Positions 29,912-62,332 of a stretch of 64,000 bases of DNA are shown here, piece by piece; positions within the stretch are counted from its first letter, which is position 1, and the number at the start of each line of letters is the position of its first letter. The notes under the pieces are model-generated. The model was not told the DNA's origin, ran no database searches, and was given only the letters and a program-made list of their open reading frames with translations. Source of the stretch: Candidatus Saccharimonadales bacterium (lineage in GTDB: Bacteria; Patescibacteriota; Saccharimonadia; Saccharimonadales; JACDFO01); the NCBI GenBank assembly GCA_038255465.1, contig JBBSLJ010000001.1:54274-118273 (forward strand), read 5' to 3'. A program made the position numbers and the translations under genes.

Positions 29912-29932
29912 TTAGTGTATTATTGACACTTA
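29912..29932. promoter_or_regulatory. Candidate NrtR operator: 21-bp near-palindrome TTAGTGT-attattg-ACACTtA in the nadD/nadE divergent intergenic region
   Basis: Inverted 7-bp arms with one mismatch. The same TTAGTGT-N7-ACACTAA arrangement recurs at 45749..45769 in another NAD-metabolism promoter. nrtR is encoded directly downstream of nadE. Confidence 0.45.
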
Positions 29933-29995
29933 CTAGTGAGTAGCGTACTATGGTGTTATGTAATTGTCAATTAAACACTAAGTTAAGGAACACAC

Positions 29996-31922: not shown

Positions 31923-32600
31923 ATGTACAAAGGTGAATATAACCCACCGATTCTAACGGTTGACACTGTTATTCTTCAGTTGATTGACAATGAGTTATTT
32001 GTTTTGTTGATACAACGTCAAAATGAGCCGTTTAAGGGCACATGGGCACTACCGGGCGCTTATAATGCTGCAGGTGAAACAACTAAAGGTGCCATGACTA
32101 GGATGCTAAAAGCTAAGGGCGGAGTCGAGATCAATGATCTTCGACTGGTTGAGCAGCTCTATACTTTTGATACGGTGGCTCGTGATCCGCGCGGCCATGC
32201 TGTTTCAGTCACCTATATGGGGCTTGGTAAGGATATTGTACCGAAAGCCAGCAAAACTACGCAGGATCCGCAGTTCTTCCCTGTTAAGATTCTCCCAAAA
32301 TTAGCCTATGATCATAAAGATATCATTGGCTATGCGCATGAGCGACTGCAATCTAAAGTAACATACACTAACGCGGTTTTTGCCTTGCTTGATCCTTTCT
32401 TTACGTTGTCTCAATTGCAAAGCGCATATGAAGCAATTTTATGTAGAGAACTTGATAAAAGAAACTTCCGTAAAAAGTTTTTAAGCCTTGATCTTATACA
32501 TGCCACTAGTGAGATGCAGCGCGAAGGCGCTCATCGTCCGGCGCGTCTTTATACCTTTAATAGTCACGAGCTAGAAAGTTTGTCTAGGAGTTTTGATTAG
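31923..32600 (+). CDS. nrtR: Nudix-related transcriptional regulator NrtR (Nudix-like ADP-ribose sensing domain plus C-terminal winged helix)
   Basis: 225 aa. The N-terminal Nudix fold lacks the full REx2EE box (ligand-binding rather than catalytic). The C-terminus (SQLQSAYEAILCRELDKRNFRKKF...RPARLYTF) matches the NrtR wHTH pattern. The gene follows nadE with a Shine-Dalgarno sequence. Confidence 0.7.
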   Translation: MYKGEYNPPILTVDTVILQLIDNELFVLLIQRQNEPFKGTWALPGAYNAAGETTKGAMTRMLKAKGGVEINDLRLVEQLYTFDTVARDPRGHAVSVTYMGLGKDIVPKASKTTQDPQFFPVKILPKLAYDHKDIIGYAHERLQSKVTYTNAVFALLDPFFTLSQLQSAYEAILCRELDKRNFRKKFLSLDLIHATSEMQREGAHRPARLYTFNSHELESLSRSFD

Positions 32601-34054: not shown

Positions 34055-34215
34055 GATGGCCTAATTGTACGCATCTCGGCATGCATAAACAAAAACGGTT
34101 TCACTTTTCGCTCTTTAGAGCTCGCCAGCATGACTGCACATTCATGAAAGTGAACTTGGGAAAGGATAAAAAATCGGAGCTGGAGGCTCAAAAACGATTT
34201 TTTACCCGGCCTGCT

Positions 34216-34239
34216 GGCGGGGACAACATTGTCCCCGCC
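34216..34239 (-). terminator. Perfect 11-bp inverted repeat GGCGGGGACAA-ca-TTGTCCCCGCC
   Basis: Lies about 30 bp downstream of the stop of the small membrane ORF 34270..34569 (minus). The following T-run is interrupted, so its terminator function is uncertain. Confidence 0.35.
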
Positions 34240-34269
34240 ACCCGTGCCGGTCTGTAGATCGTAGACCCG

Positions 34270-34569
34270 CTAGAAACCGATGATGCAGCGAGCTGCGAAG
34301 AAAACGCCGAGGGCGATCAGTATGCAGTTCAAGCTTCGCGCACGGTAACCACTTACAAGATTTATTCCACCCAGCAACACCAGGAACGAAGATGCATGCG
34401 TTGTGAGAATCCTCACCGTAAGGCTGAGATTGCTGTAATCGTACCACCACGTCAGTGGACTCACGATGGTTACGATTACCATCATCATGCTGAAATACAC
34501 GAAGATGACGAAATTCGCCACGGGGGGCAGAGCTGAACTCTCGGTCACTTTTTCAGTGGTTGTGGACAT
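34270..34569 (-). CDS. Small hydrophobic membrane protein (hypothetical)
   Basis: 99 aa with about three hydrophobic segments. The overlapping 34202..34450 ORF on the same strand is a probable shadow. Confidence 0.35.
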   Translation of the reverse strand: MSTTTEKVTESSALPPVANFVIFVYFSMMMVIVTIVSPLTWWYDYSNLSLTVRILTTHASSFLVLLGGINLVSGYRARSLNCILIALGVFFAARCIIGF

Positions 34570-34769
34570 GCCTAAACCATCCTTTCAAGGATGACTACAA
34601 GGTGCTACCTTTGGGCGTCAAAGGCCAACGTCTATTGCTAGATTAAATTACTATAGCATGTATTGTTTTTTTGTAAAGGTTTAACTTCTTACCCACAACG
34701 CAAAATTTAGTATAATATTTATATTACATATTATTGATGTTTGTTCTATAAGATTGTATAATTTGGTTC

Positions 34770-36530
34770 ATGGAACTTCATACATCTGGCACCAATCCTG
34801 AACATTTTAATACCCGGAACGTGTCACGACCGGCAAGCGAATTATTGCTTGATTATGAATTGGCACGTACTGCCTGGCCGTATGAGAGTAGCTCTTACCC
34901 GGAATTTTTAACTCAGATCGACGAGCGATCAATGCAATCTGCTCTGATAAATGATGTTATTAGCCAGATTCCTAGCCCCACAATGGCAGTCGATGAGGCT
35001 GTTGAACAAGGTCACGTATCAGAGATGCAAGCAGGTGATTTGTACGACAACCTAGCAGCTGTTTTGGGGAATGACGATTATATGCGCCTTGCGCTGTACC
35101 TGCCGCTTGAACTCTTGCCAGACAGCGGGTGGGTACCCGAGACCAATGATCTTTCGGATGCTATTAATTGCTTTAAACAAAGCTACATGCGTGCGTGGTA
35201 TAGTCTGCTAACAGTTCAAGATGTACGAGCGAATTTTGTCGACGGTGATGTTTTAGAGCCCGAGCTCAGAACCGGCGATCTGCCGAGAGTAATCAAGGCC
35301 GTTCATCTTATTCCTACGTTAGTTGCACGCGGTTTAATTTCGCTCGACCACATACAAGAATTGTTGAGTACTAGCGATGATCCTCTTTTAAAACAAAACC
35401 TTAAGGACATGTTGGACGTCATTGCTGGCACCGAGCAAACCTCTCAGATTGAGCCCCAGCGCCGGTCAGAGGGTGTGATAACCGAAAGAAGACAGGCTTG
35501 GTTGGATCAAAAAACAATAAACGAGGCTATAGAAACACAGTCCGAGCGTTTAATTAGCGAACTAACCGAGCATCCAGACGCTTACGAATCGCTGTCAGGA
35601 CTTTTAACATCCACTAACATGACGTCAGTACTTGTTGGCATTGAGGCAGTGCGCAAGATTGTATTACAGTCTGAAGATCCTTTAAGCAAATATAAGCTAT
35701 ACGAGCCGTTACTGGTTGGATTATGGCAGGCGCCTGATCAAGACATCAAAGAACGATTAACAAAATCATTCCGACATTTTTTTAGGCAAGGCATTATGGA
35801 CAATGAATCAGTAACCTCGCTGGGGGTACAATTACCCAACCCAGCAGGACTATTATCTGAAAACATGCGGCTGATTCCCACAGAAATCGAACAGCTAAAG
35901 AATGTTGCACACCGAATTGAAGCAGACCCTTGGATTTCGCGGTACGTATACCCTGTGATTGCTTTTGGAGGTTCTAAACTAAAAGGCTACGGCGAGGAAA
36001 GTTCTGATATTGATACTTGTATATTCATACGGCCCAACACGGCCGAAGACACAAAAAAGCAGCTTAGATTACGCTTGAAAGCTATTTTTGAAGCAGAGGG
36101 CCAACTTGAGGAACCTATTGAATTTTGGCTAGAGGAAGCGGGCGAACATTTAAGTGTTCGAAGATCAGAAGAGGGCGATTCACATACGGCTGATGCCTAC
36201 TGGACGCACTTACTGTTTAATGCGGCATGGATTGGTTCGCTTGCAAATACCAACACGTTAAGAGAGACCTTACTAAGCAGCTATTTTTATACTACGGAGG
36301 CTCGTGAATTAGATATGAGCGAACGCAAGTTATATCTCGAGCGAATGGAGCAGGATGCGCTGCAATATCGGTTACTCCACAAAGGATATGCAAAGCATTA
36401 TCCACCACATAGTACTAAAGGATTACCGCAGTCAGCCGCGATTGATAGCCAAAGTGTTTTTTGGGATGCTGGCTACCGCCGCCTAGCAACAAAGTTATTT
36501 TTAGAACGCGTATTCCTGCCTAAATTATAG
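34770..36530 (+). CDS. Large hypothetical protein with a Pol-beta-superfamily nucleotidyltransferase motif
   Basis: 586 aa. The motif IAFGGSKLKGYGEESSDIDTCIF ([G/S]-x10-D-x-D) lies about two-thirds into the protein. It is preceded by an AT-rich promoter region and has no other recognisable domain. Confidence 0.55.
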   Translation: MELHTSGTNPEHFNTRNVSRPASELLLDYELARTAWPYESSSYPEFLTQIDERSMQSALINDVISQIPSPTMAVDEAVEQGHVSEMQAGDLYDNLAAVLGNDDYMRLALYLPLELLPDSGWVPETNDLSDAINCFKQSYMRAWYSLLTVQDVRANFVDGDVLEPELRTGDLPRVIKAVHLIPTLVARGLISLDHIQELLSTSDDPLLKQNLKDMLDVIAGTEQTSQIEPQRRSEGVITERRQAWLDQKTINEAIETQSERLISELTEHPDAYESLSGLLTSTNMTSVLVGIEAVRKIVLQSEDPLSKYKLYEPLLVGLWQAPDQDIKERLTKSFRHFFRQGIMDNESVTSLGVQLPNPAGLLSENMRLIPTEIEQLKNVAHRIEADPWISRYVYPVIAFGGSKLKGYGEESSDIDTCIFIRPNTAEDTKKQLRLRLKAIFEAEGQLEEPIEFWLEEAGEHLSVRRSEEGDSHTADAYWTHLLFNAAWIGSLANTNTLRETLLSSYFYTTEARELDMSERKLYLERMEQDALQYRLLHKGYAKHYPPHSTKGLPQSAAIDSQSVFWDAGYRRLATKLFLERVFLPKL

Positions 36531-36590
36531 GTATAAAAAGAAAAGAGGGCCCTCAAGCAAAAACGTAAAAACGTCATGCGAGGACCCTTA

Positions 36591-36630
36591 GGGGTCCAGG
36601 TGCAGTCACGAATGACTGCCCCTGGACCCC
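36591..36630. terminator. Long hairpin (18-bp stem GGGGTCCAGGTGCAGTCA / TGACTGCCCCTGGACCCC, 1 mismatch, loop cgaa) at the island left border
   Basis: It sits between the convergent 586-aa gene (+) and the 399-aa island gene (-). On the minus strand it is followed by TTTTTacgTTTTT. Adjacent short palindromes are GAGGGCCCTC and GGACCC-tta-GGGGTCC. Confidence 0.5.
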
Positions 36631-36654
36631 GGGTGGGGTTACGACCTCAAGGGC

Positions 36655-37854
36655 CTAGAGGCGGCTGCCTCCAATGCCCGAGATCTTGCGACCCCCTCCG
36701 CTCAGCTGAGCCCAGTCGATCTGAGCACCGAGCATTTGCAGAGCTCCGAAGTACTGGAGCTCTTCGTTGCCGGCAGGCTGGTCGTCTGCCTGCATCAGAC
36801 CGAGGACGTACCTGGTGAGGTTCGTCTCCAGCCGGGGATAGGTGGCGCTGACGTTGGCACCCAACAGCTTGAGCATCTGCTCGCGGTTGGGCGCACCGAC
36901 TAGCGCCGGAAGGCGCGGGTTTTCCAGCGACTTCTTGATCTCGACCGCCTCATAGGCGAGAGCAGCCGCGATCTGAGCACCAGTGCCGGCGAAGATGCGG
37001 TTGACGGCATCGTTCACGGCACTTGCGTGGTCCCGCAGAACACCCGTTTCGGGTGGCTGCATCATGCCCGGAGGCAAGGCCATACCTCCAGCACCACCCG
37101 ACAGCAACGATGCCATGAGCACCGCCGGGTTGGCGACGCCTTGCATCCAAGCCTCCTGCCACGCCTTCAGCTGGTTGCTGAAGTCCTGGATGGCCGGCCA
37201 CAGCAGGTTGTCGATCCGCTTGAGCAGCTCCTTCTTCCGGCCCTCGGTGACGTAGTTTCCCGTCAACCCAGGGATCGCCGAGAAGATGTCGCCGTAGCTA
37301 CGGCGCGTCAGCTGCTCCCGCAACGGGAAGTAGATCGCCGGATCCACCTGCTCTTCGTTGGTGTCGGCGAACTTCTCCATCAGGGCCACCAGCTTGCCCG
37401 GGATTTCGTACAACCCGACCTGGTATGCCAAGGCCGCCCTGATGGCCGAGATGACGGTCGATTGGTCGACCTTCAGCACACCACCGGTTCGCAGAGCCGA
37501 CAGCCACGAGGCATCATCGGGCACCGACGGCAGGATGTCGAAGGCCGCGGCTCCCAGAGCAGCCGTGTCAGGCACGGGTGCCACCGGGGCGAAAGCAGCG
37601 ACCAGCTTGCGGGCCGGAACCACCTTCATGCCGACCTCGAGCAGGTCCTTCTCGGCCAGCGTGGCCAGGTCGTCCACCGTCGTGACGCCCAGCTCGTCCT
37701 TGATCTTGGCGATGATGTCGAGACCGACACCGTGCTCCAAGAGCCTGGCTGTCACCAGGTCAGGTGCTGTGGTCGCCGAAGCGGCCACGACGGGCGGCGG
37801 GTCAGCAGGAGCTGTGGGCTCCGGCGGAGGGGTTGCAGCAGTGTCATCTGCCAT
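36655..37854 (-). CDS. Hypothetical protein with Pro/Ala-rich N-terminus (last gene of the GC-rich cassette)
   Basis: 399 aa. I chose this frame over the overlapping plus-strand shadow ORFs because its composition is ordinary and it is co-directional with the AdSS-like gene. Confidence 0.5.
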   Translation of the reverse strand: MADDTAATPPPEPTAPADPPPVVAASATTAPDLVTARLLEHGVGLDIIAKIKDELGVTTVDDLATLAEKDLLEVGMKVVPARKLVAAFAPVAPVPDTAALGAAAFDILPSVPDDASWLSALRTGGVLKVDQSTVISAIRAALAYQVGLYEIPGKLVALMEKFADTNEEQVDPAIYFPLREQLTRRSYGDIFSAIPGLTGNYVTEGRKKELLKRIDNLLWPAIQDFSNQLKAWQEAWMQGVANPAVLMASLLSGGAGGMALPPGMMQPPETGVLRDHASAVNDAVNRIFAGTGAQIAAALAYEAVEIKKSLENPRLPALVGAPNREQMLKLLGANVSATYPRLETNLTRYVLGLMQADDQPAGNEELQYFGALQMLGAQIDWAQLSGGGRKISGIGGSRL

Positions 37855-37892
37855 GTTTGTTTCTCAACTTTCTCTCATGTTGGGTGGGATTT

Positions 37893-39275
37893 TCACTTGC
37901 AGAGCTTGTCAAGCTCGGTTGCCCCGAACGAAACCATCCTGGTTGGCACTCCGACCAATTCATCGACTACTCCCGCACAAACGCCGAATAGGCCGTCTTT
38001 GCTTGCGGTAGTAGCGATTGGGATGGATGTGATTTCGGGCTGACAGTCTAGCAGCCTTCGGCCAAGAGCCGTTTGATGCTCAAGGCTTGGGCGCTCATTC
38101 ACCAGGATTTCTCCTGAGGACGAAAAGAATGCGGAGTCATCCGTACCTTCGTACCTGTTGCAGAATTTCCAGATCTCGTTAATTTGGATCTGGTCAAACC
38201 ACGTGATGGCTAAGCCGTCGAACGCACTCGGTCCGCCACATGCCTCAAGAGCATATCGCAGCAGTACGAGGTCAAGCGGACCGACACGAACTTTGCCTTG
38301 GTAACGGTTTTCGTCTTTGTTACTGCCAGGCAGCAGACGTTCCGCTACTCTCGGGTCGGCGGTTGGCATTGGGCCAGCGCCATGCCTGACAGCGTAGGCG
38401 CGGGTTACCCCAATGTTCACTACCTGATCTGCAAAACCGGCGTCCTCGAGCATGCTATGCGTGAAGCGTGGCAGTGTCCGAATAGCGCTGGTATGCGGAT
38501 GAAACCCTATCAAGCGATCCGTGAGCACACCGTGCGACGTTTCCACGACTGCCGCGCCTTCTCTGGAAAGTATTTCATCTCCAAAAAATTCGTGGCCGAC
38601 GATCCTCGCCAGACTGCCCGCTTCATAAAACCGCATGACGACGTAGTCCAAAAACGCGTCGTTGTACAGAAGCTCTATCTCCTCCATAGCCGAATCTTGA
38701 TCGCCGGCAAGAAACTCACCGTCGACTATCGGCTGGAGGTCAGCCCGAATGCGATCACGAACAGTTGCCATCAGCTCTCGCAGATCAGGACGTTTCAAGT
38801 CCTTCGCCTTGATAGCTAACTCCGGCACTCGTCCGTAATCCCGATAGGCCTCACCGACGCCGGTGCCTATCGTCCCTCGCGGATTGTCACCCCTCGCCAT
38901 TTCTTTTAGGCGGGAAGCGATGCCGTGGAAGGGCGTGGCACACAATGCTTCTTCGTCCACCGTCAGTAGACTAAAAACATCATGGATACCATGATGGTAT
39001 CTCAGCGCGTCGGCTTCATTGAGTAATCCCTCCGGAGAGACAATCATCTGCTCCGAAAGGTGCGTTGGTATGCCTTCGAAAGTTCCGCACCCCCATTGGC
39101 TAAAAGCGAACTTCTCGCCTCTGGAAGTATGGACGCCGTGGCTTCCCTGGGCTCCACCTCGTTTGATGACGGTGTGGGCACGCATCATCGTTGCGATTTT
39201 GTGCACCACACCGCCTTTGCCACCGTCACCTGGCCCTAGATCGGTGACAACGTAAACCTTGCTGGTCATCGTCAT
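37893..39275 (-). CDS. Adenylosuccinate synthetase family protein, highly divergent (PurA/PurZ-like)
   Basis: 460 aa. VYVVTDLGPGDGGKGG matches the PurA P-loop GDEGKGK, RGGAQGSHG matches GGHNAGHT, TGVGEAYRDY matches RGIGPAYEDK, and AYAVRHGAGPMPT matches AYSTRVGAGPFPT. Several canonical catalytic residues appear substituted. Confidence 0.75.
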   Translation of the reverse strand: MTMTSKVYVVTDLGPGDGGKGGVVHKIATMMRAHTVIKRGGAQGSHGVHTSRGEKFAFSQWGCGTFEGIPTHLSEQMIVSPEGLLNEADALRYHHGIHDVFSLLTVDEEALCATPFHGIASRLKEMARGDNPRGTIGTGVGEAYRDYGRVPELAIKAKDLKRPDLRELMATVRDRIRADLQPIVDGEFLAGDQDSAMEEIELLYNDAFLDYVVMRFYEAGSLARIVGHEFFGDEILSREGAAVVETSHGVLTDRLIGFHPHTSAIRTLPRFTHSMLEDAGFADQVVNIGVTRAYAVRHGAGPMPTADPRVAERLLPGSNKDENRYQGKVRVGPLDLVLLRYALEACGGPSAFDGLAITWFDQIQINEIWKFCNRYEGTDDSAFFSSSGEILVNERPSLEHQTALGRRLLDCQPEITSIPIATTASKDGLFGVCAGVVDELVGVPTRMVSFGATELDKLCK

Positions 39276-39296
39276 CCCCTCTCTTGGGATAGATGC

Positions 39297-40415
39297 TTAG
39301 AGCCAGGTTGGCCCTTCGCTCGTGTCGAGAACTGGGTCGGTCTCCGCCTGCGCGACCTCGTCCTGGCTGATGGGCCAGAGATCGGTCTTGCTACGGAAGA
39401 GGTCGCCCTTCTGCGGCACGCGGATGTCCTTGCGGAGTGCCGCTTGCGCGCCGATGGGGATGTTGGCCACCGAACGAGCGATGCGCTGGGCATCGGAGGC
39501 ACTGACGTTGTTGGTCGTCAGGAAGTCGATCACCTGGTCCAGGCTGAGCGTGCCCTCGGTGAGGCCGATGATGGTGGCCTGCACCTGCGGCAGCAGCCTG
39601 GTGTCCGGCAACACGATGACGCGGTCACCACCGAACACGTTGGTCCAGAATCTGGACGTTGACGAACTGCTCCCGACTTGCAGGAAGAAGGCATGCGCCC
39701 GCTTCAGCAGGTCAGCAACGACCTCCTTGGTCGTTGGCAAATCGTTGGCGTCGATTTGGAAGCCGTTGGCAGCAACCTTCTCGAACACCTCATTGCCGAA
39801 GACCCGCTTGAGCTGCTTCTCGCTCAACTGATCCCGTGCCGGAGCGTCAGAAATGGTGAAGTCGAAGCCCTTGAGACCAATGCGGTTGATGTACGCATTG
39901 ACGAGGTAGGCGCCGCCGAAGAGTCCGTAGTGCGGATCCTCCTCTACGTCGGCTCCTGCCCGCTCCGGCACCATCAGCGTCAGTTGCTCGACGATCTTCT
40001 CGGCGAGCATCTCGAATTGCGGCCGACAGAGCACGAAGCGGTCTCGGACGTCACCGAATATGCCGGTGGCCATGTGCAGGTCGTAGCCCGGAAGCACGCC
40101 GCTGCAGAGGTCGTAGGCATCCGGCAAAACACCGATTGCCACATCGACGTTGCCTCCCATGCTGCCGGTGGTGTCCAAACGCGTCTCAACCGGCATGGAA
40201 GTGCCGATTGTCAGCTCGTACAGCCCGTTCGGGAGCTGCTCAAAGCGCAGACGCGACGGACGGACAACGCCGTACTCCGCCGGGTCAACCAGCGGGTTCA
40301 GCTTGCCCGTATCGCGAGCCTTCTGCTCGGCTGCCCGGGTCGCAGGACCGCTAGGCGGTACGTACGCTCTAGATGCCGAGGCATAGGACGCCCTTGTAAA
40401 AGTATCTCTTCCCAT
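39297..40415 (-). CDS. Hypothetical protein with a possible vWA/MIDAS-like DxTGSM motif
   Basis: 372 aa. RLDTTGSMGG resembles the vWA MIDAS DxSGSM motif. The rest is unrecognised, so the assignment is tentative. Confidence 0.45.
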   Translation of the reverse strand: MGRDTFTRASYASASRAYVPPSGPATRAAEQKARDTGKLNPLVDPAEYGVVRPSRLRFEQLPNGLYELTIGTSMPVETRLDTTGSMGGNVDVAIGVLPDAYDLCSGVLPGYDLHMATGIFGDVRDRFVLCRPQFEMLAEKIVEQLTLMVPERAGADVEEDPHYGLFGGAYLVNAYINRIGLKGFDFTISDAPARDQLSEKQLKRVFGNEVFEKVAANGFQIDANDLPTTKEVVADLLKRAHAFFLQVGSSSSTSRFWTNVFGGDRVIVLPDTRLLPQVQATIIGLTEGTLSLDQVIDFLTTNNVSASDAQRIARSVANIPIGAQAALRKDIRVPQKGDLFRSKTDLWPISQDEVAQAETDPVLDTSEGPTWL

Positions 40416-40441
40416 TGTCTGCTGTCCTTTGTTCGGGCCGC

Positions 40442-41254
40442 TTACAGCGGCAGGGTGGTGAATTCAACAAACGTACGCCCCCAGAGCTCTTCGACCAGTT
40501 CATAGAACTGCGCGTGAGCTCTATCAGCCTTGTGTTCACGACGACTTGCCAGGCGCCAAAGGCACTCGACATATCGACCGAACTCCTCACTGTCGTATGG
40601 ATAATTGCCAGTGATAGGATCTCCACCAATGGCAGCAAACACTGCTTTTGCAGCGCCTGCGATATCATCCTTGCGAATTTCCACCGGTATCCCCGTCTGG
40701 TGCATCTGTGCAGACGACCAGTCAAAGACAACGGCGAAATGCTGTTGCGGTTCAAGCAGGATGTTGGCCGCCGTGAGCGAACCAACAGCGATGCCGTCAC
40801 CGTGAGCGAGACCTAGCAGCTTAAGAAGCCTGCCCATAATCCAGGCGCTAGACCTGAGATCAACACGCAGATGGTCTTTGGCCACTAGGTTACTGAGCGG
40901 CACCATCTGCTTTACATCGTCCACTTCCGTGAAAGCCAGGATGTTAACCCGACGGCCACCTTGGTCTTCAGCGATGAAGCCGTCTACCATGAGGGGAAAC
41001 AAACGATCATAGCTAAGCAACCTACCCGAACCGGTCTTAGCGTATTCCGCTTCGAACAGATCGGCTGTTTGCTTCAGTTCCTTCAGGACATACGTAGCCC
41101 TTTCGAGACTGCCGTTGTGTGCTACGCCTGACACGATCTGCAACAGATACGGCTTGTCGTTGTCCACCTCTTGACAGAGATAAACCCGATACAAGTCTGT
41201 TTCTGCGACTTTCGCGCCAACACGATATTTGCACGTACCACTCTCGACGATCAC
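40442..41254 (-). CDS. Small-molecule kinase-like protein (APH / fructosamine-kinase-like phosphotransferase fold); first gene of the cassette
   Basis: 270 aa. HGDGIAVGSLTAANILLEP is a Brenner-type HGDxxxxN catalytic loop, and FAVVFDWSSA is a D(F/W)x metal-binding motif. Confidence 0.6.
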   Translation of the reverse strand: MIVESGTCKYRVGAKVAETDLYRVYLCQEVDNDKPYLLQIVSGVAHNGSLERATYVLKELKQTADLFEAEYAKTGSGRLLSYDRLFPLMVDGFIAEDQGGRRVNILAFTEVDDVKQMVPLSNLVAKDHLRVDLRSSAWIMGRLLKLLGLAHGDGIAVGSLTAANILLEPQQHFAVVFDWSSAQMHQTGIPVEIRKDDIAGAAKAVFAAIGGDPITGNYPYDSEEFGRYVECLWRLASRREHKADRAHAQFYELVEELWGRTFVEFTTLPL

Positions 41255-41443
41255 CGGTGCATCACCTCCCTTGTCAGGTACAGTTGAAACTACGGATATT
41301 TATATACATGCGTGATGTATGTGCGTGTATTTGAACCTAATTGTTAAAGAGCTGGTATAACGACCCTTTAGTTAGTGTAGCATGTACACAAACATTCGTC
41401 ACGTACTTTATTATTACATTTACACTTGTTTAAGTCAATCATT

Positions 41444-41559: not shown

Positions 41560-43809
41560 ATGGTCTCATTTGCTTTAAAATCAAATTTTAATTACCATAA
41601 GCGGATGGATACTAGTGAGCTCTTAGGAGCCGCAGCGTTGGCTGAGCCGGCACAAAAAAAACATGAATTTGAAGAAATCACAGAGTCCCAGCCTGCTTCT
41701 ACTATTGACCGATTGCAACAATTAGAAGTATTAAAAGAAGTTGCAGATGTTATGCGAGAAGATCCTGCTGTTTCTTCTATGTTTGATGTTGTACGTCAAA
41801 CTCCTGATATTTTTACTGAAATCCAACCCGTTTTATCTCGTGATAAAGAATTTGACTCGGCAGCCTTACCTGGCGAGCTACACCGTACTTTTACTCCCTT
41901 ATTTGCCGGGATTAGCATGTCGCGTCGCGGAAGCACCCTACTTGAGCTTGCCATCGACAGACACACCGACTGTGAGGCTGAGCAGCTTTGGGGTTTAATT
42001 ATCAAAGGAGAGGCGTACACTTCCGAGCTTGTTGTTGGATCGGGAGTTCATGCAGCTATTTATAATTCAGAGCGCATGACGGCTGATCCAAAAGTGCCGG
42101 CACTTACAATTGACGGTGGTGCCAGCGCGGGCGGACAATTTGCGGGTCCAGAGGGACCAGTCTGGTTTTTGAACACACGTACCAGGCCTGAGGATCCCGA
42201 CGCACCTAATGTCCCGGGGGGCAAGGGCAGCTTGAATACACTAGAGCGTGGCGTTCTTCAACAGTCTGATATCAGCGGATCATCATATGCCTCTCAAGAT
42301 ACATTAGCCCTACCAACGCAAGTCAATCATCTTTTATATAGTAAAGTGCTCAATAGAACGGAAGTTGTTCGTGTTGAGGAAAACAATAGCGATGAAAGCG
42401 GCCGACCAGGATTATACAAAGTGACCTTGAGGTGCGGAGAGCTAGAAGAAGCAACAGTTACTACTGACAGACTAGTTTTTGCGAGTGGTCTTGGTGACCC
42501 AGTTACTGGTTTTGAAAACAGTGACCAAGATACGCAGGATATTATTGAGGAAGAAAAAGCAAAATTTAAACGCGGCGAAGATGCCCAGATCATGACATTC
42601 GAACAATTTGCCGAACGTGTCGGTGACGAAAGCGACCCATTCCCGCTAAGACCCTTTGGGTGGGTGGCAGTAATCGGCCCGGGCGACGGCGGAGCTGTTG
42701 CCGCCGAATACCTATTGGGTAGTGGGCCATCGACACGCATGTCTTCTACCCAGCTTGATCAGGTTCAAGAAGTATTTTGGATCGGCCAAAAAGCCGAAAC
42801 TCGCGAAGAATATATGCAATCAAGCCGGCAGCGTTATCGTAATCTCGGCCTTGAATTCCCAGTTGATACCAAAAGCGGCTATGCTCACCGGCTCACACCT
42901 ATACCAACTCGAGCCTATAAAATTGAGCGAACCGAAGATGGCCGCATCAAGATACTCCATGGGAGGCGTGAAACTGACGGGACTATTACCCACGTTGATG
43001 ATGTCGTGGTTGATCATGTAGTTCTTGCAACTGGTTTCAAAAAAAAGACAGAGAAAATTTGCAGTTCTGTTCTTAAGCCCGACCATGAGGGCAAGGTTGA
43101 CGAATTTGTAACGGTAGATGACGGCTGGGCAATTGCTAGAAGATATTCAGGAACTCAAATATACATTGTTGGGCCGGCAGCCGAATTACCTGTTAGCCGC
43201 CAAGATAGAGATACTTCTCCAGCCATGAAAAGGGGGAAGGTCATATCGAAAACGGTGGCCGTATGGGCTAGCGCAGAGGAAACGGCAGCGGCAGCTAGAT
43301 TGCTTAGCTCACAGAAGCCAGACGGAGAGCGCCCGGCTAGTCTAACTACTAAGCAAACTGCTAAGGTTGAGCCCGTTGAACTCCCGCCAATAGACCTATC
43401 GAATAATCAACAAGGGTCACAAATGGTGGCTGAGGTTGCAAAAGAAAAAATTCATAGTCTTTTGCCACACGATGCCAATTCAGAAGACATTACCCGATTA
43501 GCAGTTGGAACTGCATTACATAGGTACGTTTTCCCTGAGTCATTAGATAGTATACGTTTAACTATCCAAAGGATAAGCGAATCTGAAAACGGCTGGCGTT
43601 TTGATGTTAAGACAAATGTCGGCTTTCCGCAGTCTCCAGAATATATACGCCTTATGGACGACCTTATAGGCGAGCCTCTGTTGCAATCCGTTCTAGTAAG
43701 GCTAACTGAGCGGTCCGTCCACTCTTCTCAGACCGCAGTTTTAGACATCCCCTTATCCATGAGAAAAGTCTCTATAGGTGAAGTTGAGATTCGCGTCAAA
43801 CGCCGCTAG
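41560..43809 (+). CDS. Flavin-dependent (class B, N-hydroxylating/FMO-like) monooxygenase-like protein with N- and C-terminal extensions
   Basis: 749 aa. Two dinucleotide-binding motifs (LVVGSGVHAAIYN; VAVIGPGDGGAVAAEYLL) and a late VLATGF (ATG motif). About 130 aa at the N-terminus and about 190 aa at the C-terminus are unassigned. Confidence 0.55.
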   Translation: MVSFALKSNFNYHKRMDTSELLGAAALAEPAQKKHEFEEITESQPASTIDRLQQLEVLKEVADVMREDPAVSSMFDVVRQTPDIFTEIQPVLSRDKEFDSAALPGELHRTFTPLFAGISMSRRGSTLLELAIDRHTDCEAEQLWGLIIKGEAYTSELVVGSGVHAAIYNSERMTADPKVPALTIDGGASAGGQFAGPEGPVWFLNTRTRPEDPDAPNVPGGKGSLNTLERGVLQQSDISGSSYASQDTLALPTQVNHLLYSKVLNRTEVVRVEENNSDESGRPGLYKVTLRCGELEEATVTTDRLVFASGLGDPVTGFENSDQDTQDIIEEEKAKFKRGEDAQIMTFEQFAERVGDESDPFPLRPFGWVAVIGPGDGGAVAAEYLLGSGPSTRMSSTQLDQVQEVFWIGQKAETREEYMQSSRQRYRNLGLEFPVDTKSGYAHRLTPIPTRAYKIERTEDGRIKILHGRRETDGTITHVDDVVVDHVVLATGFKKKTEKICSSVLKPDHEGKVDEFVTVDDGWAIARRYSGTQIYIVGPAAELPVSRQDRDTSPAMKRGKVISKTVAVWASAEETAAAARLLSSQKPDGERPASLTTKQTAKVEPVELPPIDLSNNQQGSQMVAEVAKEKIHSLLPHDANSEDITRLAVGTALHRYVFPESLDSIRLTIQRISESENGWRFDVKTNVGFPQSPEYIRLMDDLIGEPLLQSVLVRLTERSVHSSQTAVLDIPLSMRKVSIGEVEIRVKRR

Positions 43810-45748: not shown

Positions 45749-45769
45749 TTAGTGTTGACAATACACTAA
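45749..45769. promoter_or_regulatory. Candidate NrtR operator: perfect 21-bp palindrome TTAGTGT-tgacaat-ACACTAA
   Basis: It lies in the divergent region between the histidine phosphatase (-) and pncA (+), about 67 bp upstream of pncA. The arms match the nadD/nadE site at 29912..29932. Confidence 0.5.
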
Positions 45770-45835
45770 GTATCATCTACTATCCATTATACACAGTAAG
45801 TGTGTATACAACAATAAGTAGTAGAGGAGTAGATT

Positions 45836-50624: not shown

Positions 50625-51365
50625 ATGCAACTGACGGAAGAAGCAGTAGCCAACGCCATTATCTGGAGCGCCGACGTCGATACCACCGAAACCTTGCTGG
50701 CTCAGGTAGAGAAGATGCCTAGGCTTTCGATCGTCAAAATCGACCGCCTGTTCGTGGCAAAGAACGGCTACGACATCTTCGACGCCCTTCGTGAGCGAGA
50801 CAAGCACGTCTTCTACGACGCCAAGATCGTCGAAATCCCAAGCAAAAGCGAGGCGCTGGCCATAGCCGAGTGCCGGCATCAGCCCTGGATGCTCAACTGC
50901 ATGGCCGGAATTGTGTCTGGTGGTGATTTTAGCCACGACGACCCCGATAAAATCGAAGCGCTGATGCGTTTTGCTGATGCCTGCCTCAGCGCAGACGTCC
51001 GTCCCTGTGCCGTGACGGTACTCACAAGCAAAAAGCCAGAGCTGGTCACCGAGGAATTCGGCCGCAGTGCCATCGATCAGGTGCTGTACTACGTCGAGCT
51101 CCTGGTGACTGCCGGTTTCACAGATGTCGTCTGCTCGCCAGCAGAGATCGAAGCCATCCGCTCGCGGTTCGAAGTCGACCTCGACATCAACACGCCCGGC
51201 TTGCGCCGCAATTCATCTGACACCGGCGACCAAGCCCGCGTCGCTACGCTTGGCTCGGCTCTTCGTTCTGGTGCCACTCGTGGCGTCATTGGTCGTGACC
51301 TGACCAAAGGCAACCCCGCTCAGAACTTTGACGACATCGTCGCCGAAGCCGTCGCCGAAGTCTGA
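50625..51365 (+). CDS. pyrF: Orotidine 5-prime-phosphate decarboxylase
   Basis: 246 aa. VKIDRLFVAKNG, VFYDAKIVEIPSK (matching the DxKxxDIP motif) and the C-terminal GRDLTKGNP. Confidence 0.7.
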   Translation: MQLTEEAVANAIIWSADVDTTETLLAQVEKMPRLSIVKIDRLFVAKNGYDIFDALRERDKHVFYDAKIVEIPSKSEALAIAECRHQPWMLNCMAGIVSGGDFSHDDPDKIEALMRFADACLSADVRPCAVTVLTSKKPELVTEEFGRSAIDQVLYYVELLVTAGFTDVVCSPAEIEAIRSRFEVDLDINTPGLRRNSSDTGDQARVATLGSALRSGATRGVIGRDLTKGNPAQNFDDIVAEAVAEV

Positions 51366-51394
51366 TCCCCAGACCGACAATCCGAAAGGACGTT

Positions 51395-52063
51395 ATGACA
51401 ACGCTCGAAGGAAAGAAGGAGTTGGTTGCCGATTTGCTTTATGCGCTCGGCGCCATCCAGATCGACACTGAAGTCGGATTCCGGCTCAAGTTGCACGAAA
51501 GGCTGCCCAGCGCACCGCTTTCGCCGATCTATCTGAACCTGAGGACACCGGATCATTCTAAGAACCCGGGACCTCTGACGCCAGAGATCATGCAACTCAT
51601 CGCAGAGTTGATGGATGAGATGTCGCTCGGTCTGGGCAAAGAGTGCTTTACCGGCATCCCGGAAGCTGGCGAGCCTTTTGCGGACTATTTCGAGAAGATC
51701 GTCGGCGCAAGCCGCCTCCGCCTGCAGAAGGTAGAAAAAAACGGCAAGCGCTGGATCGACGATCATTTCACAGGCGATTTCGAGCCGGGCGACCGCTGCA
51801 TCATCATCGACGACCTCATCACGCAGGCCGATAGCAAGCTGGAGGCCATCCGTGCTTTGACACACTCGACGCTCCAAATATCCGGAGTGCTAGTCGTTGT
51901 CGACCGTATGCAGGGAGGTCGTCAGCAGCTTATGGCAGCGGGTCACCGGCTATTCGCCATTTTCACGCTGCACGAACTGCTCAGCCATTACGCCCGGAAG
52001 GGCTACATCGATCAGTCGCAGGCCGAGACAGTGCTGAAGTACATCGCGGTCAACCAGGCCTGA
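51395..52063 (+). CDS. Orotate phosphoribosyltransferase-like protein with a non-canonical PRPP loop
   Basis: 222 aa. The OPRT-like N-terminus (LGAIQID...GFRLKLH...SPIYLNLR) is present. The PRPP motif reads CIIIDDLITQADS where VEDVITTGGS is expected. The C-terminal VVVDRMQGG is present. Confidence 0.6.
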   Translation: MTTLEGKKELVADLLYALGAIQIDTEVGFRLKLHERLPSAPLSPIYLNLRTPDHSKNPGPLTPEIMQLIAELMDEMSLGLGKECFTGIPEAGEPFADYFEKIVGASRLRLQKVEKNGKRWIDDHFTGDFEPGDRCIIIDDLITQADSKLEAIRALTHSTLQISGVLVVVDRMQGGRQQLMAAGHRLFAIFTLHELLSHYARKGYIDQSQAETVLKYIAVNQA

Positions 52064-61833: not shown

Positions 61834-62332
61834 TCTGTCCTACAGGCATAGGCTGTTCGAATTACGTTTCACTGCATAAGAACAGTCAAGAAGCAGTGAG
61901 CCGTTTAATCCTAATCTTAGACTGACTACGGATCACTTGTCAGTAGCATCCAGAAAATATGGCGTGATTATGTACTATCTGGCGTCGTATATATCACGGC
62001 TGTCAAAATTAATTAAGCAGCGTACGCTACAGGTGCGAATTGGAAATTACCAAAACGTGCAAGTAGCTGATCTTTAAGATTTGCATCTAAAAAGGTTTTG
62101 CCTATAACGCTGGCAAGCGGCCTGCTGATCTAACCGTTAAAGTCCAACGTCGAGCATAAATTTCAGCCCCTCGTTTGTAGTCACATATTAATACGTGACA
62201 TCCTTATATTATACCACTTATGTCAATAGGAGTACAATGGTCTGCCGAAGAGCAAAGTAATATTATTTAATATATTGCGTTATGTATATAATTGTGCTAT
62301 AATACCGTACATAACATAATAACAGGTTAAGG

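Follow-up and report, generated by a model that had tools for sequence, protein, structure and literature searches.

A five-gene module of Patescibacteria centred on a divergent adenylosuccinate-synthetase-like enzyme and apparently controlled through NrtR

Gene content and borders of the module

The window, i.e., the whole stretch of 64,000 nucleotides analysed here from a Candidatus Saccharimonadales bacterium, harbours, at 34.8-41.4 kb, five genes that make up a self-contained module with a wide distribution in Patescibacteria (CPR bacteria). Four minus-strand genes, separated by spacers of 26, 21, and 38 nt, form an operon encoding a pseudokinase, a von Willebrand A-type (vWA)/MIDAS protein, a divergent adenylosuccinate-synthetase (AdSS)-family enzyme, and a SAM-plus-helical protein (Table 1). 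The fifth gene encodes a Pol-beta-type nucleotidyltransferase; it is convergent with the operon and lies beyond the strong terminator at the operon's end. The earlier note was right about the four packed genes but drew the unit too small, treating the nucleotidyltransferase-fold protein, an assignment borne out by Pfam, as a flank. The combination is undescribed, as had been supposed, with no PADLOC entry and none found in literature searches; in the PADLOC search with all five proteins nothing was significant, the best being two matches of the pseudokinase (E = 0.02-0.045). On the right-hand side, the description of the neighbour at 41560-43809 as flavin-monooxygenase-like found no support in Pfam, NCBIfam, PADLOC, or PDB.

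Table 1. Features of the module and of its regulatory surroundings in the window
Feature	Position	Strand	Basis
Operator-like boxes upstream of nadE	29912-29932, 29961-29981		Palindrome scan
NrtR regulator (Nudix domain + NrtR winged helix)	31923..32600	+	Pfam NrtR_WHD 2.5e-24 plus NUDIX
586-aa nucleotidyltransferase, fifth module member	34770..36530	+	Pfam NTP_transf_2/Polbeta
Terminator region	36545..36630	-	Two GC-rich hairpins then U-rich tail, between convergent genes
399-aa SAM-helical protein	36655..37854	-	Pfam SAM_TNK, E = 1.6e-5; AlphaFold model
Divergent AdSS-family enzyme, 460 aa	37893..39275	-	Pfam PF00709, E = 9e-32
372-aa vWA-fold protein, MIDAS motif, C-terminal helical domain	39297..40415	-	AlphaFold model and conservation
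270-aa protein-kinase-fold protein, pseudokinase-like	40442..41254	-	Family profile, PHROG, phage homology
Predicted NrtR operator TTAGTGTAGCATGTACACAAA	41372..41392	.	21-bp palindrome, GT-N7-AC core, one mismatch to TTAGTGT-N7-ACACTAA
Promoter-like site of the four-gene operon	41410..41438	-	-35 TTGACT, 17-nt spacer with TG, -10 AATAAT; consensus scan
Operator-like boxes upstream of pncA	45749-45769, 45797-45817		Palindrome scan

Both borders noted earlier have substance. The GC-rich hairpin cluster on the left resolves into two strong hairpins with a U-rich tail; the RNA 3' of the last operon gene folds with a dG of -62.8 kcal/mol (z = -6.3), a value equalled by 0/200 shuffles. The AT-rich right border holds, on the minus strand, a site that matches the promoter consensus at 10/12 positions and would serve as the promoter of the operon. 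The motif CCCCTGTTAA, presented as recurrent, is only weakly so, with 8 matches (three of them exact) vs 3.5 expected when one mismatch is allowed, a count reached by 2/100 shuffles. The element truly recurring in the window is another one, the 21-bp palindrome TTAGTGT-N7-ACACTAA.

Conservation, base composition, and regulatory context

A relative is encoded in 468 species genomes, and the 80 best loci come almost entirely from CPR bacteria. The five genes are found in unchanged order in 71-81 of 81 loci, nearly all Patescibacteria, and the nucleotidyltransferase gene lies directly downstream of the operon, in convergent orientation, in 75/81. A search for synteny in genome databases, proposed earlier for the cassette, shows that the genes travel together, in most loci with the convergent nucleotidyltransferase. 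No neighbour is conserved beyond the five genes in the 81 loci, and neither purB nor other purine genes are among the recurrent neighbours in 80 loci. In IMG/VR, the CPR-type cassette was found on only 2 contigs, each lacking no more than one of the five genes.

The base composition of the operon is distinct from its surroundings. GC content is 0.52-0.70 over 36.6-41.2 kb vs about 0.45 around it; in 1-kb windows it is 0.52-0.63 for 36-41 kb vs 0.42-0.50 almost everywhere else, and in 200-bp windows it is 0.45 at 36.5 kb, has reached 0.63 by 36.7 kb, and is down to 0.33-0.35 at 41.3-41.5 kb. The GC3 values of the four operon genes are 0.80, 0.58, 0.79, and 0.57 (window median 0.44), and long opposite-strand shadow ORFs (338, 275, and 217 aa) are confined to the cassette span, so that the sharp discontinuity perceived by eye is real. 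The nucleotidyltransferase gene has host-like GC. However, recent acquisition from a high-GC donor, as deduced from this jump, is not supported, since the same arrangement occurs in about 70-79 of 81 loci and the GC excess tracks host GC. In the relatives, the cassette is more than 3 GC points richer than its flanks in 70/76 loci (mean excess 8.6 points), and its GC is correlated with that of the host (r = 0.69, slope 0.8); the sequence identity of 45-81% to relatives also argues against recent transfer. The operon is thus a long-time resident with persistently raised GC3, not a recent insertion.

The regulatory context, an NrtR regulon according to the earlier note, is now firmer. The window has 6 boxes of the TTAGTGT-N7-ACACTAA type where 0.21 would be expected; nadE and pncA together account for four, all in their upstream regions. 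The 21-bp motif fits the NrtR operator class, in which ADP-ribose is the effector that relieves repression (PMC2330246). The predicted operator of the module sits right after the -10 element, 118-138 nt 5' of the first start codon of the operon, and the presumed regulator is the NrtR encoded by the last gene of the nadE-nrtR unit. Among relatives, a box with two mismatches or fewer occurs in the 350 bp that precede the first operon gene in 19/72 loci, while shuffled upstream windows gave a mean of 0.26 loci; the box density in these upstream regions is 0.84 per kb vs 0.019 per kb elsewhere. The box-bearing loci span several CPR lineages and have the box at a nearly constant distance to the start codon, some 120-140 bp ahead of the operon as in the window; the same scan found no box upstream of the first gene in loci of mammal-associated Saccharibacteria. 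The commonest Pfam families among 127 immediate neighbours of related loci are NUDIX (9), NrtR_WHD (6), and ADP_ribosyl_GH (5). Apparently, the operon is switched on via the NAD-breakdown sensor NrtR, acting at a predicted operator, and the predicted regulator and effector logic are those of known NrtR regulons, where ADP-ribose lifts repression (PMC2330246). It is worth adding that the divergent gene at 41560 has the box 168 bp upstream of it as well, and the box may control that gene instead, or both.

The encoded proteins and the mycobacteriophage triad

The five-gene module is uncharacterised, and at its centre stands the AdSS-like enzyme, whose translation likely starts two codons further on, at 39269, as in an identical 458-aa database protein. 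Its strong divergence, recognised from the start, is evident from the significant match to PF00709 and yet only 76 bits in the NCBIfam PurA equivalog models, for which the cut-off is 402. The best library family is PHROG 1211 (labelled PurZ; E = 4e-43), and the closest of 948 database relatives are 60-81% identical. Alignment to E. coli PurA structures revealed that the equivalents of D13, K16, and H41 never vary, nor does that of the guanine-specifying D333. The enzyme shares with PurA (EC 6.3.4.4) the Pfam family, the fold, the catalytic Asp/Lys/His, and the guanine-specifying Asp of the TKLD motif, and in view of this conservation the likely chemistry is the activation of a 6-oxo group on a purine, driven by GTP. 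Other PurA positions are changed (N38Q, T129I/V, R131T, Q224H, T301Q, and R303K), and R143 has no basic counterpart. The changes affect the aspartate loop and two of the four ligands of the IMP 5'-phosphate, so that IMP plus free aspartate is probably too simple a description of the substrates. In contrast to purA, the gene never adjoins purine genes and always adjoins the vWA and pseudokinase genes, and NrtR-type operators stand ahead of its operon, both in the window and in 19/72 related loci. The second enzyme that invites comparison is phage PurZ, the N6-succino-2-amino-2'-deoxyadenylate synthase of Z-genome phages, which is likewise a divergent, phage-carried AdSS-family enzyme and whose name PHROG 1211 bears. 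PurZ genes in Z-genome phages have as partners DatZ, MazZ, or a dedicated polymerase; among the 28 ORFs scanned at 30-56 kb, there was no match to such partners (dATPase, MazG-type, polymerase), and no entry named PurZ is among the PDB matches of the enzyme.

The earlier note envisaged a small-molecule kinase resembling APH and, with it, a phosphorylation step. The kinase-like character stands, with an ePK (eukaryotic-type protein kinase) fold, as the family profile matches CK2 alpha (E = 1e-5) over the catalytic loop and DWG region and the protein matches PHROG 3043, 'kinase' (E = 6e-12). The APH-like assignment is rejected because neither the HRD Asp nor the VAIK Lys is kept, V/H-G replacing HRD in the family and Gln replacing the Lys in most members; with these catalytic residues missing, the phosphorylation step is not supported either. 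For the adjacent protein, the suspected MIDAS-like motif was substantiated by a vWA fold in an AlphaFold model of moderate confidence (pLDDT 75.7, pTM 0.77) and by a motif, D81-T-T83-G-S85, in which D81, T82, T83, and S85 are invariant. A natural pseudokinase-vWA fusion protein (P0412) was also found. The 399-aa protein consists of a low-complexity N-terminus, a SAM/(HhH)2-like domain spanning roughly residues 33-90, and a large domain, entirely helical, for which no relatives were detectable; its model is of moderate confidence (pLDDT 75), none of the viral structure models matches it, and the best 120 of 381 database relatives (58-71% identical) are all 'hypothetical'. The 586-aa protein carries a C-terminal Pol-beta-type nucleotidyltransferase domain (G401-S402 ... 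D413-x-D415) with a weak PDB profile match to the MNT protein HI0073, and its N-terminal region is conserved, with the fold unassigned. None of the five proteins belongs to any known enzyme family of NAD biosynthesis, salvage, or NARP pathways, and no NAD-forming reaction is assignable to them.

Homologues of the pseudokinase, vWA protein, and AdSS-like enzyme occur, in the same order as in CPR bacteria, in 203 cluster C mycobacteriophages. In LRRHood (Bixzunavirus), the cluster comprises gp253 (kinase), gp254, gp255, and gp256 ('PurA-like adenylosuccinate synthetase') and is uncharacterised, like the CPR module. The pseudokinase is homologous to mycobacteriophage gp253 (BLASTP 4e-15; hhalign 98.9%), the vWA protein to gp254 (hhalign 96.4%, E = 1.4e-9), and the AdSS-like enzyme is 33% identical to gp256 over 99% of its length (hhalign 100%), the identity between the CPR and phage groups being 25-33%. 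Both groups share the motifs TDLGxGD, GG-x-Q-x-x-H, FSQ, RHG-x-GP, and QG-x-x-R; at position 224, the phage enzyme has Gln as in PurA, whereas CPR enzymes have His. The SAM-helical protein and the nucleotidyltransferase of the CPR module have no counterparts in the phage cluster. The mycobacterial NrtR palindrome was experimentally defined (PMC6800001), and in 148 of the 154 kb of LRRHood a single match to it, with one mismatch, was found inside the triad, where it falls within a coding sequence; as the 203 phages are near-identical, this site counts as one observation. Compared with prs-nadV, pncAB, nadE, and the NARP1-3 pathways, the core triad resembles prs/nadV-type genes in that it occurs in NrtR regulons as well as in large phages.

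Proposed role and alternative explanations

We propose that the module encodes an ADP-ribose-inducible nucleotide-ligase complex acting in NAD stress, an explanation whose chances of being right or wrong we regard as even. NrtR would repress the operon via the predicted operator until ADP-ribose, a product of NAD+ cleavage, frees the operon from it, and the module would then be expressed alongside nadE and pncA/pncB during NAD breakdown. By analogy with PurA, the AdSS-like protein would be the catalytic subunit, using GTP to phosphorylate a purine nucleotide on its 6-oxo group, after which an amine would take the place of the phosphate, yielding an N6-substituted adenine-type compound; substrate, amine donor, and product are all what we infer. 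The vWA protein and the pseudokinase would act as non-catalytic partners (scaffold, substrate presentation, or regulation), and the SAM-helical protein and nucleotidyltransferase would be CPR-specific additions. Such a complex might restore or reshape the adenine-nucleotide/NAD pool under NAD-depleting stress, and in cluster C mycobacteriophages the core triad presumably serves the same purpose in infection. The persistent GC3 excess is left unaccounted for by this explanation.

It is unlikely, albeit worth serious attention, that the module performs housekeeping purine salvage, the AdSS-like enzyme being a divergent PurA of reduced genomes that makes adenylosuccinate from IMP and aspartate, with the other genes co-regulated or co-located. 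PF00709 membership, the kept catalytic and GTP-specificity residues, and wide conservation in organisms obliged to salvage nucleotides suit this idea, and co-regulation with NAD synthesis would be sensible because NAD synthesis uses ATP. However, the score lies far below the equivalog cut-off, residues contacting the IMP 5'-phosphate, base, and aspartate are substituted, purB and purine genes are absent from the recurrent neighbours, and the linkage to the vWA and pseudokinase genes is strict, in phages too.

A role in conflict is rather improbable. It assumes that the triad neutralises or exploits an NAD- or purine-derived immune metabolite, e.g., by re-amination of deaminated adenine nucleotides or by rebuilding NAD via an undescribed route, and that it serves phages against host immunity and episymbiotic CPR bacteria against hosts or their own phages. 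The presence of the triad in the 203 lytic mycobacteriophages, near typical host take-over genes, and the predicted ADP-ribose-sensor operator in CPR and phage lineages alike point in this direction. The phage NAD-reconstitution pathways NARP1-3, none of which includes module genes, show that the niche exists. Against a role in conflict, no defence genes are linked according to PADLOC and the neighbour survey, and the chemical route is not established. The broad syntenic conservation over CPR classes also resembles core physiology rather than patchy conflict genes.

Returning to the island from a high-GC donor, the earlier note considered that it might make a modified nucleoside or nucleotide along the lines of ToyG, ForA, or PurZ, or might function in defence or as a toxin. 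This is very improbable, and its recent-transfer part is largely refuted by the conserved place and partner gene, the host-tracking GC excess, and the divergence of relatives described above; the rarity of the cassette in IMG/VR, the PADLOC result for all five proteins, and the PurZ-partner scan also weigh against it, in spite of the GC and GC3 jump, the PurZ label of the top PHROG match, and the existence of phage relatives.

Finally, the purely inferential idea that a purine nucleotide is joined to a protein amine (candidate: the Gly conserved at the N-terminus of the vWA protein), or that a 6-oxopurine in RNA/DNA is the target, with the SAM-like protein and the nucleotidyltransferase handling nucleic acid, deserves hardly any credence, given that we know of no AdSS-family enzyme acting on macromolecules and that the phage version is devoid of the latter two proteins, even if the loss of two IMP 5'-phosphate ligands, the changed aspartate loop, the SAM/(HhH)2-like domain, and conserved protein termini would suit it. 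Concerning these termini, the MG...[W/F]...Y N-terminus of the vWA protein is kept from CPR to phage-like clades, and its C-terminal L, mostly after W or R, across those clades and in gp254; the 399-aa protein terminates in ...SRL in the window, with the C-terminal L conserved.

The module and its AdSS-like enzyme

The four minus-strand genes of the cassette (about 36.6-41.2 kb) encode a 270-aa pseudokinase, a 372-aa vWA protein, a 460-aa protein resembling adenylosuccinate synthetase (AdSS), and a 399-aa protein; the first three are referred to as the triad, and the cassette together with the convergent gene of a 586-aa nucleotidyltransferase as the module. A relative of the AdSS-like protein is encoded in 468 genomes, in a scan with one genome per species, and the best 80 loci belong almost exclusively to the candidate phyla radiation (CPR, Patescibacteria), namely, Saccharibacteria, Paceibacteria, Peribacteria, and Uhr-, Falkow-, Davies-, Moran-, and Wildermuthbacteria. 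A few of these 80 carry unverified non-CPR NCBI labels ("Gammaproteobacteria," "Fimivivens," "Omnitrophota," "Fibrobacteres"), on which no weight was put. The closest relatives of the organism studied are Saccharibacteria MAGs. The genes are co-localised elsewhere as well: the order pseudokinase, vWA, AdSS-like, 399-aa protein, and convergent nucleotidyltransferase recurs in related loci, individual module genes being present in 71-81 of the 81 compared, and many of the gaps are contig ends. When all ORFs of the 80 loci were clustered, no other conserved neighbour was found, and the flanks vary from genome to genome. The positions of the features considered here are collected in the table.

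Features of the window, with positions in window coordinates
Feature	Position	Strand	Details	Source
Paired NrtR-type boxes	29912-29981		upstream of nadE(-nrtR)	palindrome scan
nrtR	31923-32600	+	predicted ADP-ribose-responsive repressor	
pyrB-nucleotidyltransferase gap	34055-34769		715 bp	
Nucleotidyltransferase gene	34770-36530	+	586 aa, convergent to cassette	
NrtR-type box	41372-41392		just downstream of predicted -10, 118-138 nt upstream of first cassette start	palindrome scan
749-aa ORF	41560-43809	+	divergent from cassette	
Paired NrtR-type boxes	45749-45817		upstream of pncA-pncB-Nudix	palindrome scan
Second GC3-rich patch	50625-52063		pyrF and next ORF (222 aa)	
tmRNA gene	61784-62170	-	60.9 bits, E = 2e-21	Rfam

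The earlier note described the AdSS-like protein as a strongly divergent member of its family, and this description is borne out: the protein matches Pfam PF00709 over the full length (E = 9.3e-32, residues 16-399), and its family profile matches PurA structures at 1e-13 to 4e-17, yet the best NCBIfam PurA model gives 76.4 bits against an equivalog cut-off of 402, and the other PurA models give 34-70 bits against cut-offs of 368-700. It is a member of the AdSS superfamily that fails the PurA equivalog test. The catalytic set is kept, with D17, K20, and H46 corresponding to D13, K16, and H41 of E. coli PurA, and so is D361, the counterpart of the guanine-specifying D333 in the TKLD motif; all four are invariant in 23 family members. 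T239 and S240 of PurA are also retained. The changes relative to the E. coli enzyme are N38Q, T129I/V, R131T, Q224H, T300Y, T301Q, and R303K, and no basic residue is aligned with R143. The changed positions are those which we take, from the E. coli structures, to be contacts to the IMP 5'-phosphate, the base, and aspartate. No purine genes are found among the recurrent neighbours of the module in the 10-kb flanks of related loci. That the protein is a divergent but ordinary PurA, a reading which has the family match and the kept catalytic set on its side and the equivalog scores and altered contacts against it, is considered unlikely. It is best regarded as an AdSS-family ligase with new partners and a new predicted regulation, and its substrates are probably new; that its chemistry is new as well is realistic but less likely than not.

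The enzyme also differs from PurZ in lacking the PurZ gene context. In the Z-genome system, PurZ is accompanied by DatZ (a dATPase), MazZ (a (d)GTP pyrophosphohydrolase), and a dedicated polymerase, and none of the three was found in the cassette, in 28 ORFs scanned at 30-56 kb, or among the recurrent neighbours of related loci. Relatives of the AdSS-like protein number 948 in the database; the top 120, its own database copy aside, are 61-81% identical to it, and many of them are from Patescibacteria. The searched literature yielded no functional study linking adenylosuccinate synthetase with Patescibacteria, Saccharibacteria, a vWA protein and kinase, NrtR, or the PurA-like genes of phages, and, as no significant PADLOC match was obtained either, the gene combination still appears to be undescribed.

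The 270-aa protein has a protein-kinase fold, the profile of its 28-member family matching CK2 alpha at E = 1e-5 (N-lobe and the stretch from the catalytic loop to DWG) and the protein itself matching the PHROG "kinase" at E = 6e-12. It is best called a pseudokinase because V/H-G-x, which lacks an Asp, stands opposite HRD in the family, most members have Gln in place of the ATP-anchoring Lys (Lys is found only in the mammal-associated clade), and the invariant residues P119, W138, G141, H172, and Y251 are not the kinase catalytic set. The APH-like kinase that was thought to add a phosphorylation step is not supported by these substitutions. The possible MIDAS-like motif suggested for the 372-aa protein is, on the other hand, real: the protein has a vWA (Rossmann-like) fold with the invariant MIDAS-type motif D81-T-T-G-S85 (structure model: pLDDT 75.7, pTM 0.77). 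Its family forms a small, tight group (336 representatives after clustering at 50%, E up to 0.001). An N-terminal MG...[W/F]...Y is common to the CPR and phage-like clades, in both of which the C-terminal Leu also recurs, usually preceded by Trp or Arg; the 399-aa protein has a conserved terminal Leu too. PDB profile searches with the vWA and 399-aa families gave no useful match. The database representative P0412 (679 aa) is a fusion of a pseudokinase (17-297) and a vWA protein (347-669), its halves being of the type found in mammal-associated Saccharibacteria; such a fusion is in keeping with a physical partnership of the two proteins, provided that it does not stem from merged gene calls. 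In the 586-aa nucleotidyltransferase, a Pol-beta-type motif (GS...DxD) lies C-terminal to a conserved N-terminal region.

The module is more diverged in L056-L081, the loci of mammal- and rumen-associated Saccharibacteria, with AdSS-like proteins 42-54% identical. Their nucleotidyltransferase ORFs are mostly about 390-450 aa long, apparently without the N-terminal region, as against about 580-660 aa in most other loci, and in six aligned members the pseudokinase has Lys at the ATP-anchoring position. Two IMG/VR contigs classed as viral carry a CPR-type module, L084 with five genes and L083 with three (it ends just after the AdSS-like gene); both may be CPR fragments or prophage-adjacent DNA.

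Predicted NrtR operators and the mycobacteriophage counterpart

NrtR operators are 21-bp palindromes with a GT-N7-AC core, from which NrtR is released by ADP-ribose in vitro (PMC2330246). A 21-bp palindrome of this class, TTAGTGT-N7-ACACTAA, is common to the upstream regions of nadE and pncA, and the cassette shares this box with these NAD genes of the same genome. At up to two mismatches the palindrome is counted six times in the window against 0.21 expected: twice before nadE (which nrtR follows), twice before pncA, once upstream of the cassette, and once at 4553, a box-like site with two mismatches and within an ORF that probably occurs by chance. In 19 of 72 related loci, the 19 being from several CPR lineages, the 350 bp preceding the pseudokinase gene contain a box; the density there is 0.84/kb against 0.019/kb elsewhere (shuffled upstream windows have a mean of 0.26 loci). 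The distances in relatives are near that in the window, four perfect sites beginning at -136 to -153, and some related loci have a box upstream of the nucleotidyltransferase gene as well. In L056-L081, no NrtR-type box was found 5' of the first gene. The nrtR gene directly adjoins the module in several lineages, and the commonest Pfam families among 127 immediate neighbours are NUDIX (9), NrtR_WHD (6), and ADP_ribosyl_GH (5). Because of the boxes in the window and in relatives, the adjoining nrtR, and the Nudix and ADP-ribosylglycohydrolase neighbours, the module is predicted to be an evolutionarily conserved member of the NrtR regulon, and the regulon context proposed in the earlier note is upheld at this level.

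The 749-aa ORF shares with the cassette the intergenic region that holds the box, and this site could serve the divergent gene as well. For this ORF, neither Pfam nor PADLOC nor the PDB gave a match, and none of the 81 related loci has a counterpart; it may belong to the regulon in this lineage only. The paired boxes at nadE(-nrtR) and pncA-pncB-Nudix define a compact predicted NAD regulon in this genome, and genes for an ADP-ribosylglycohydrolase and a histidine phosphatase are situated between pncA and the cassette.

The closest relatives of the enzyme outside CPR are the uncharacterised "PurA-like" genes of Bixzunavirus phages. A tblastn search of phage genomes with the AdSS-like protein matched 226 records, of which 203 belong to phages of Mycobacterium or Mycolicibacterium; in these, about 33% of residues are identical over 99% of the length, and the annotation reads "PurA-like adenylosuccinate synthetase." In LRRHood, a cluster C mycobacteriophage, the gene order is gp253 ("serine/threonine kinase"), gp254, the small gp255, and the PurA-like gp256. 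The first is homologous to the pseudokinase (BLASTP 4e-15; hhalign 98.9%), with H-G in place of HRD there too; gp254 and the vWA protein are homologues (hhalign 96.4%, E = 1.4e-9) whose MIDAS motifs align; and gp256 has the family-specific motifs of the CPR enzymes. A nucleotide search of phage genomes with the whole cassette gave no match, nor did tblastn with the vWA and 399-aa proteins, and the link of the vWA protein to phages is visible only by pairwise and profile comparison. Unlike the CPR loci, LRRHood has no counterpart of the 399-aa protein or of the 586-aa nucleotidyltransferase; gp3, a phage nucleotidyltransferase five genes past the triad, proved unrelated to the latter.

The experimentally known mycobacterial NrtR operator is GTTTTCGA-N7-TCGAAAAC (PMC6800001). 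Within three mismatches of it, the scanned 148 of 154 kb of LRRHood contain a single site, at 150310-150332, which deviates at one position and falls within gp253, 377 bp upstream of gp254. It counts as one observation because the 203 phages are 95-100% identical there. Judged by these predicted sites, in each of two very distant lineages the triad would be accompanied by that lineage's own form of the NrtR operator. Other products of LRRHood (L085, L088, L082) include gp236, a PnuC-like transporter of nicotinamide riboside; gp225, a Ro-like RNA-binding protein; gp89, an RNA ligase; and gp250, a polynucleotide kinase encoded three genes ahead of the triad.

A phage core with the predicted NrtR operator of its own host ties the module to NAD-centred virus-host conflict. 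This is an active field, in which three phage routes of rebuilding NAD are known; these pathways, NARP1-3, employ other enzymes and none of the module's proteins. A function of the module in conflict or counter-defence, which would overlap with the model preferred below, is rather improbable. As to known anti-phage defence, a PADLOC screen of the five module proteins and five further ORFs of the window gave no significant match for the former, the best being two pseudokinase hits at E = 0.021 and 0.045; among the other ORFs there was only a sub-threshold match of a Nudix neighbour to PDC-S07.

Base composition and layout of the cassette

Most of what the earlier note had read from composition and layout was reproduced. 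The GC jump is sharp and real, with 1-kb windows at 0.52-0.63 across 36-41 kb against 0.42-0.50 nearly everywhere else; in 200-bp windows, GC rises from 0.45 to 0.63 at 36.5-36.7 kb and falls to 0.33-0.35 at 41.3-41.5 kb. Most of the shift is at synonymous positions, the four genes having GC3 values of 0.80, 0.58, 0.79, and 0.57 where the median for the window is 0.44. Opposite the cassette genes there are indeed shadow ORFs (217-338 aa), as expected in GC-rich coding DNA. The four ORFs are tightly packed (spacers of 26, 21, and 38 nt). The hairpins noticed at the left border correspond, in the RNA 3' of the last gene, to a pair of strong hairpins with a U-rich tail after them (dG -62.8 kcal/mol, z = -6.3), and the right border is AT-rich with a good promoter-like site 5' of the first gene. 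The motif CCCCTGTTAA, called recurrent there, recurs only weakly in the window and is a poor candidate for a regulatory element.

The same composition had led to the view that the cassette was acquired horizontally from a high-GC donor. The operon genes, however, exceed their flanks in GC by over 3 points at 70 of 76 loci (mean 8.6 points), while the nucleotidyltransferase gene of related loci has host-like GC, and cassette GC follows host GC (r = 0.69, slope 0.8). Since conserved synteny, widespread GC excess, and host-tracking GC do not fit a recent insertion from a single donor, such an origin is very unlikely. The GC excess is a long-standing property of the four operon genes, for which codon selection for high expression and biased gene conversion via recombination at very conserved genes are candidate causes. 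A GC3 excess confined to four genes and consistent across hosts of very different GC is an evolutionary signal in its own right.

Besides the cassette, GC3 is out of line in the window only for pyrF (0.70) and the 222-aa ORF after it (0.72), the latter having no Pfam or PADLOC match. The gap between pyrB and the nucleotidyltransferase gene is unusually long. Within it are CGGGGACAACATTGTCCCCG, which is a GC-rich palindrome, and, on the minus strand, two small overlapping ORFs (82 and 99 aa); an NrtR-type box was not found in it. Rfam gave no riboswitch, either in the whole window at gathering thresholds or in the 5' leader of the cassette at E up to 1. ARAGORN gave no tRNA or tmRNA in the window, the tmRNA gene being from Rfam.

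A proposed working of the module

Directly observed are the anatomy and conservation of the module, the folds of two partners of the enzyme, its catalytic core, which is kept, and its contacts, which are altered, and the operator-like sites. It is proposed that NrtR would repress the operon, and that cleavage of NAD+ would raise ADP-ribose and so induce it along with nadE and pncA/pncB. In the AdSS-like subunit, GTP would activate a purine 6-oxo group, onto which an amine would be transferred, the substrates being other than IMP and free aspartate; the vWA protein and the pseudokinase would be non-catalytic partners. Overall, the module would serve, under NAD-depleting stress, to restore or reshape the pools of adenine nucleotides and NAD. 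To this composite reading, an ADP-ribose-induced, GTP-driven amine ligase complex with a role in these pools, we give even odds. The more specific version is possible but doubtful: that the triad is an unrecognised complex, induced through ADP-ribose and NrtR, which performs a new C6-amination or ligation on a non-IMP 6-oxopurine nucleotide (for example, a dinucleotide or a compound related to ADP-ribose) or a protein amine, and thereby provides a new route of adenine-nucleotide/NAD repair common to CPR episymbionts and large mycobacteriophages. Modification of a macromolecule is, as an alternative to the pool role, very improbable.

If the ligase-complex reading is true, it would add a new AdSS-family branch with vWA and pseudokinase partners and extend the known PurA/PurZ chemistry. 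CPR bacteria account for a large part of bacterial diversity, and the majority of the genes conserved in them lack a known function. The module is directly testable because it is compact, its catalytic subunit can be identified, and both its regulator and its inducing signal are predicted.

One further arrangement was observed in L086 (identical to L010; the contig is labelled Omnitrophota), where the 399-aa gene is relocated upstream and divergent. Its neighbours (880-1485 and 10062-10514) include a PRK/zeta-toxin-like kinase and a CTP_transf_like (NMNAT/NadD-fold) protein, which could be nicotinamide-riboside salvage genes, i.e., another NAD-related neighbourhood.
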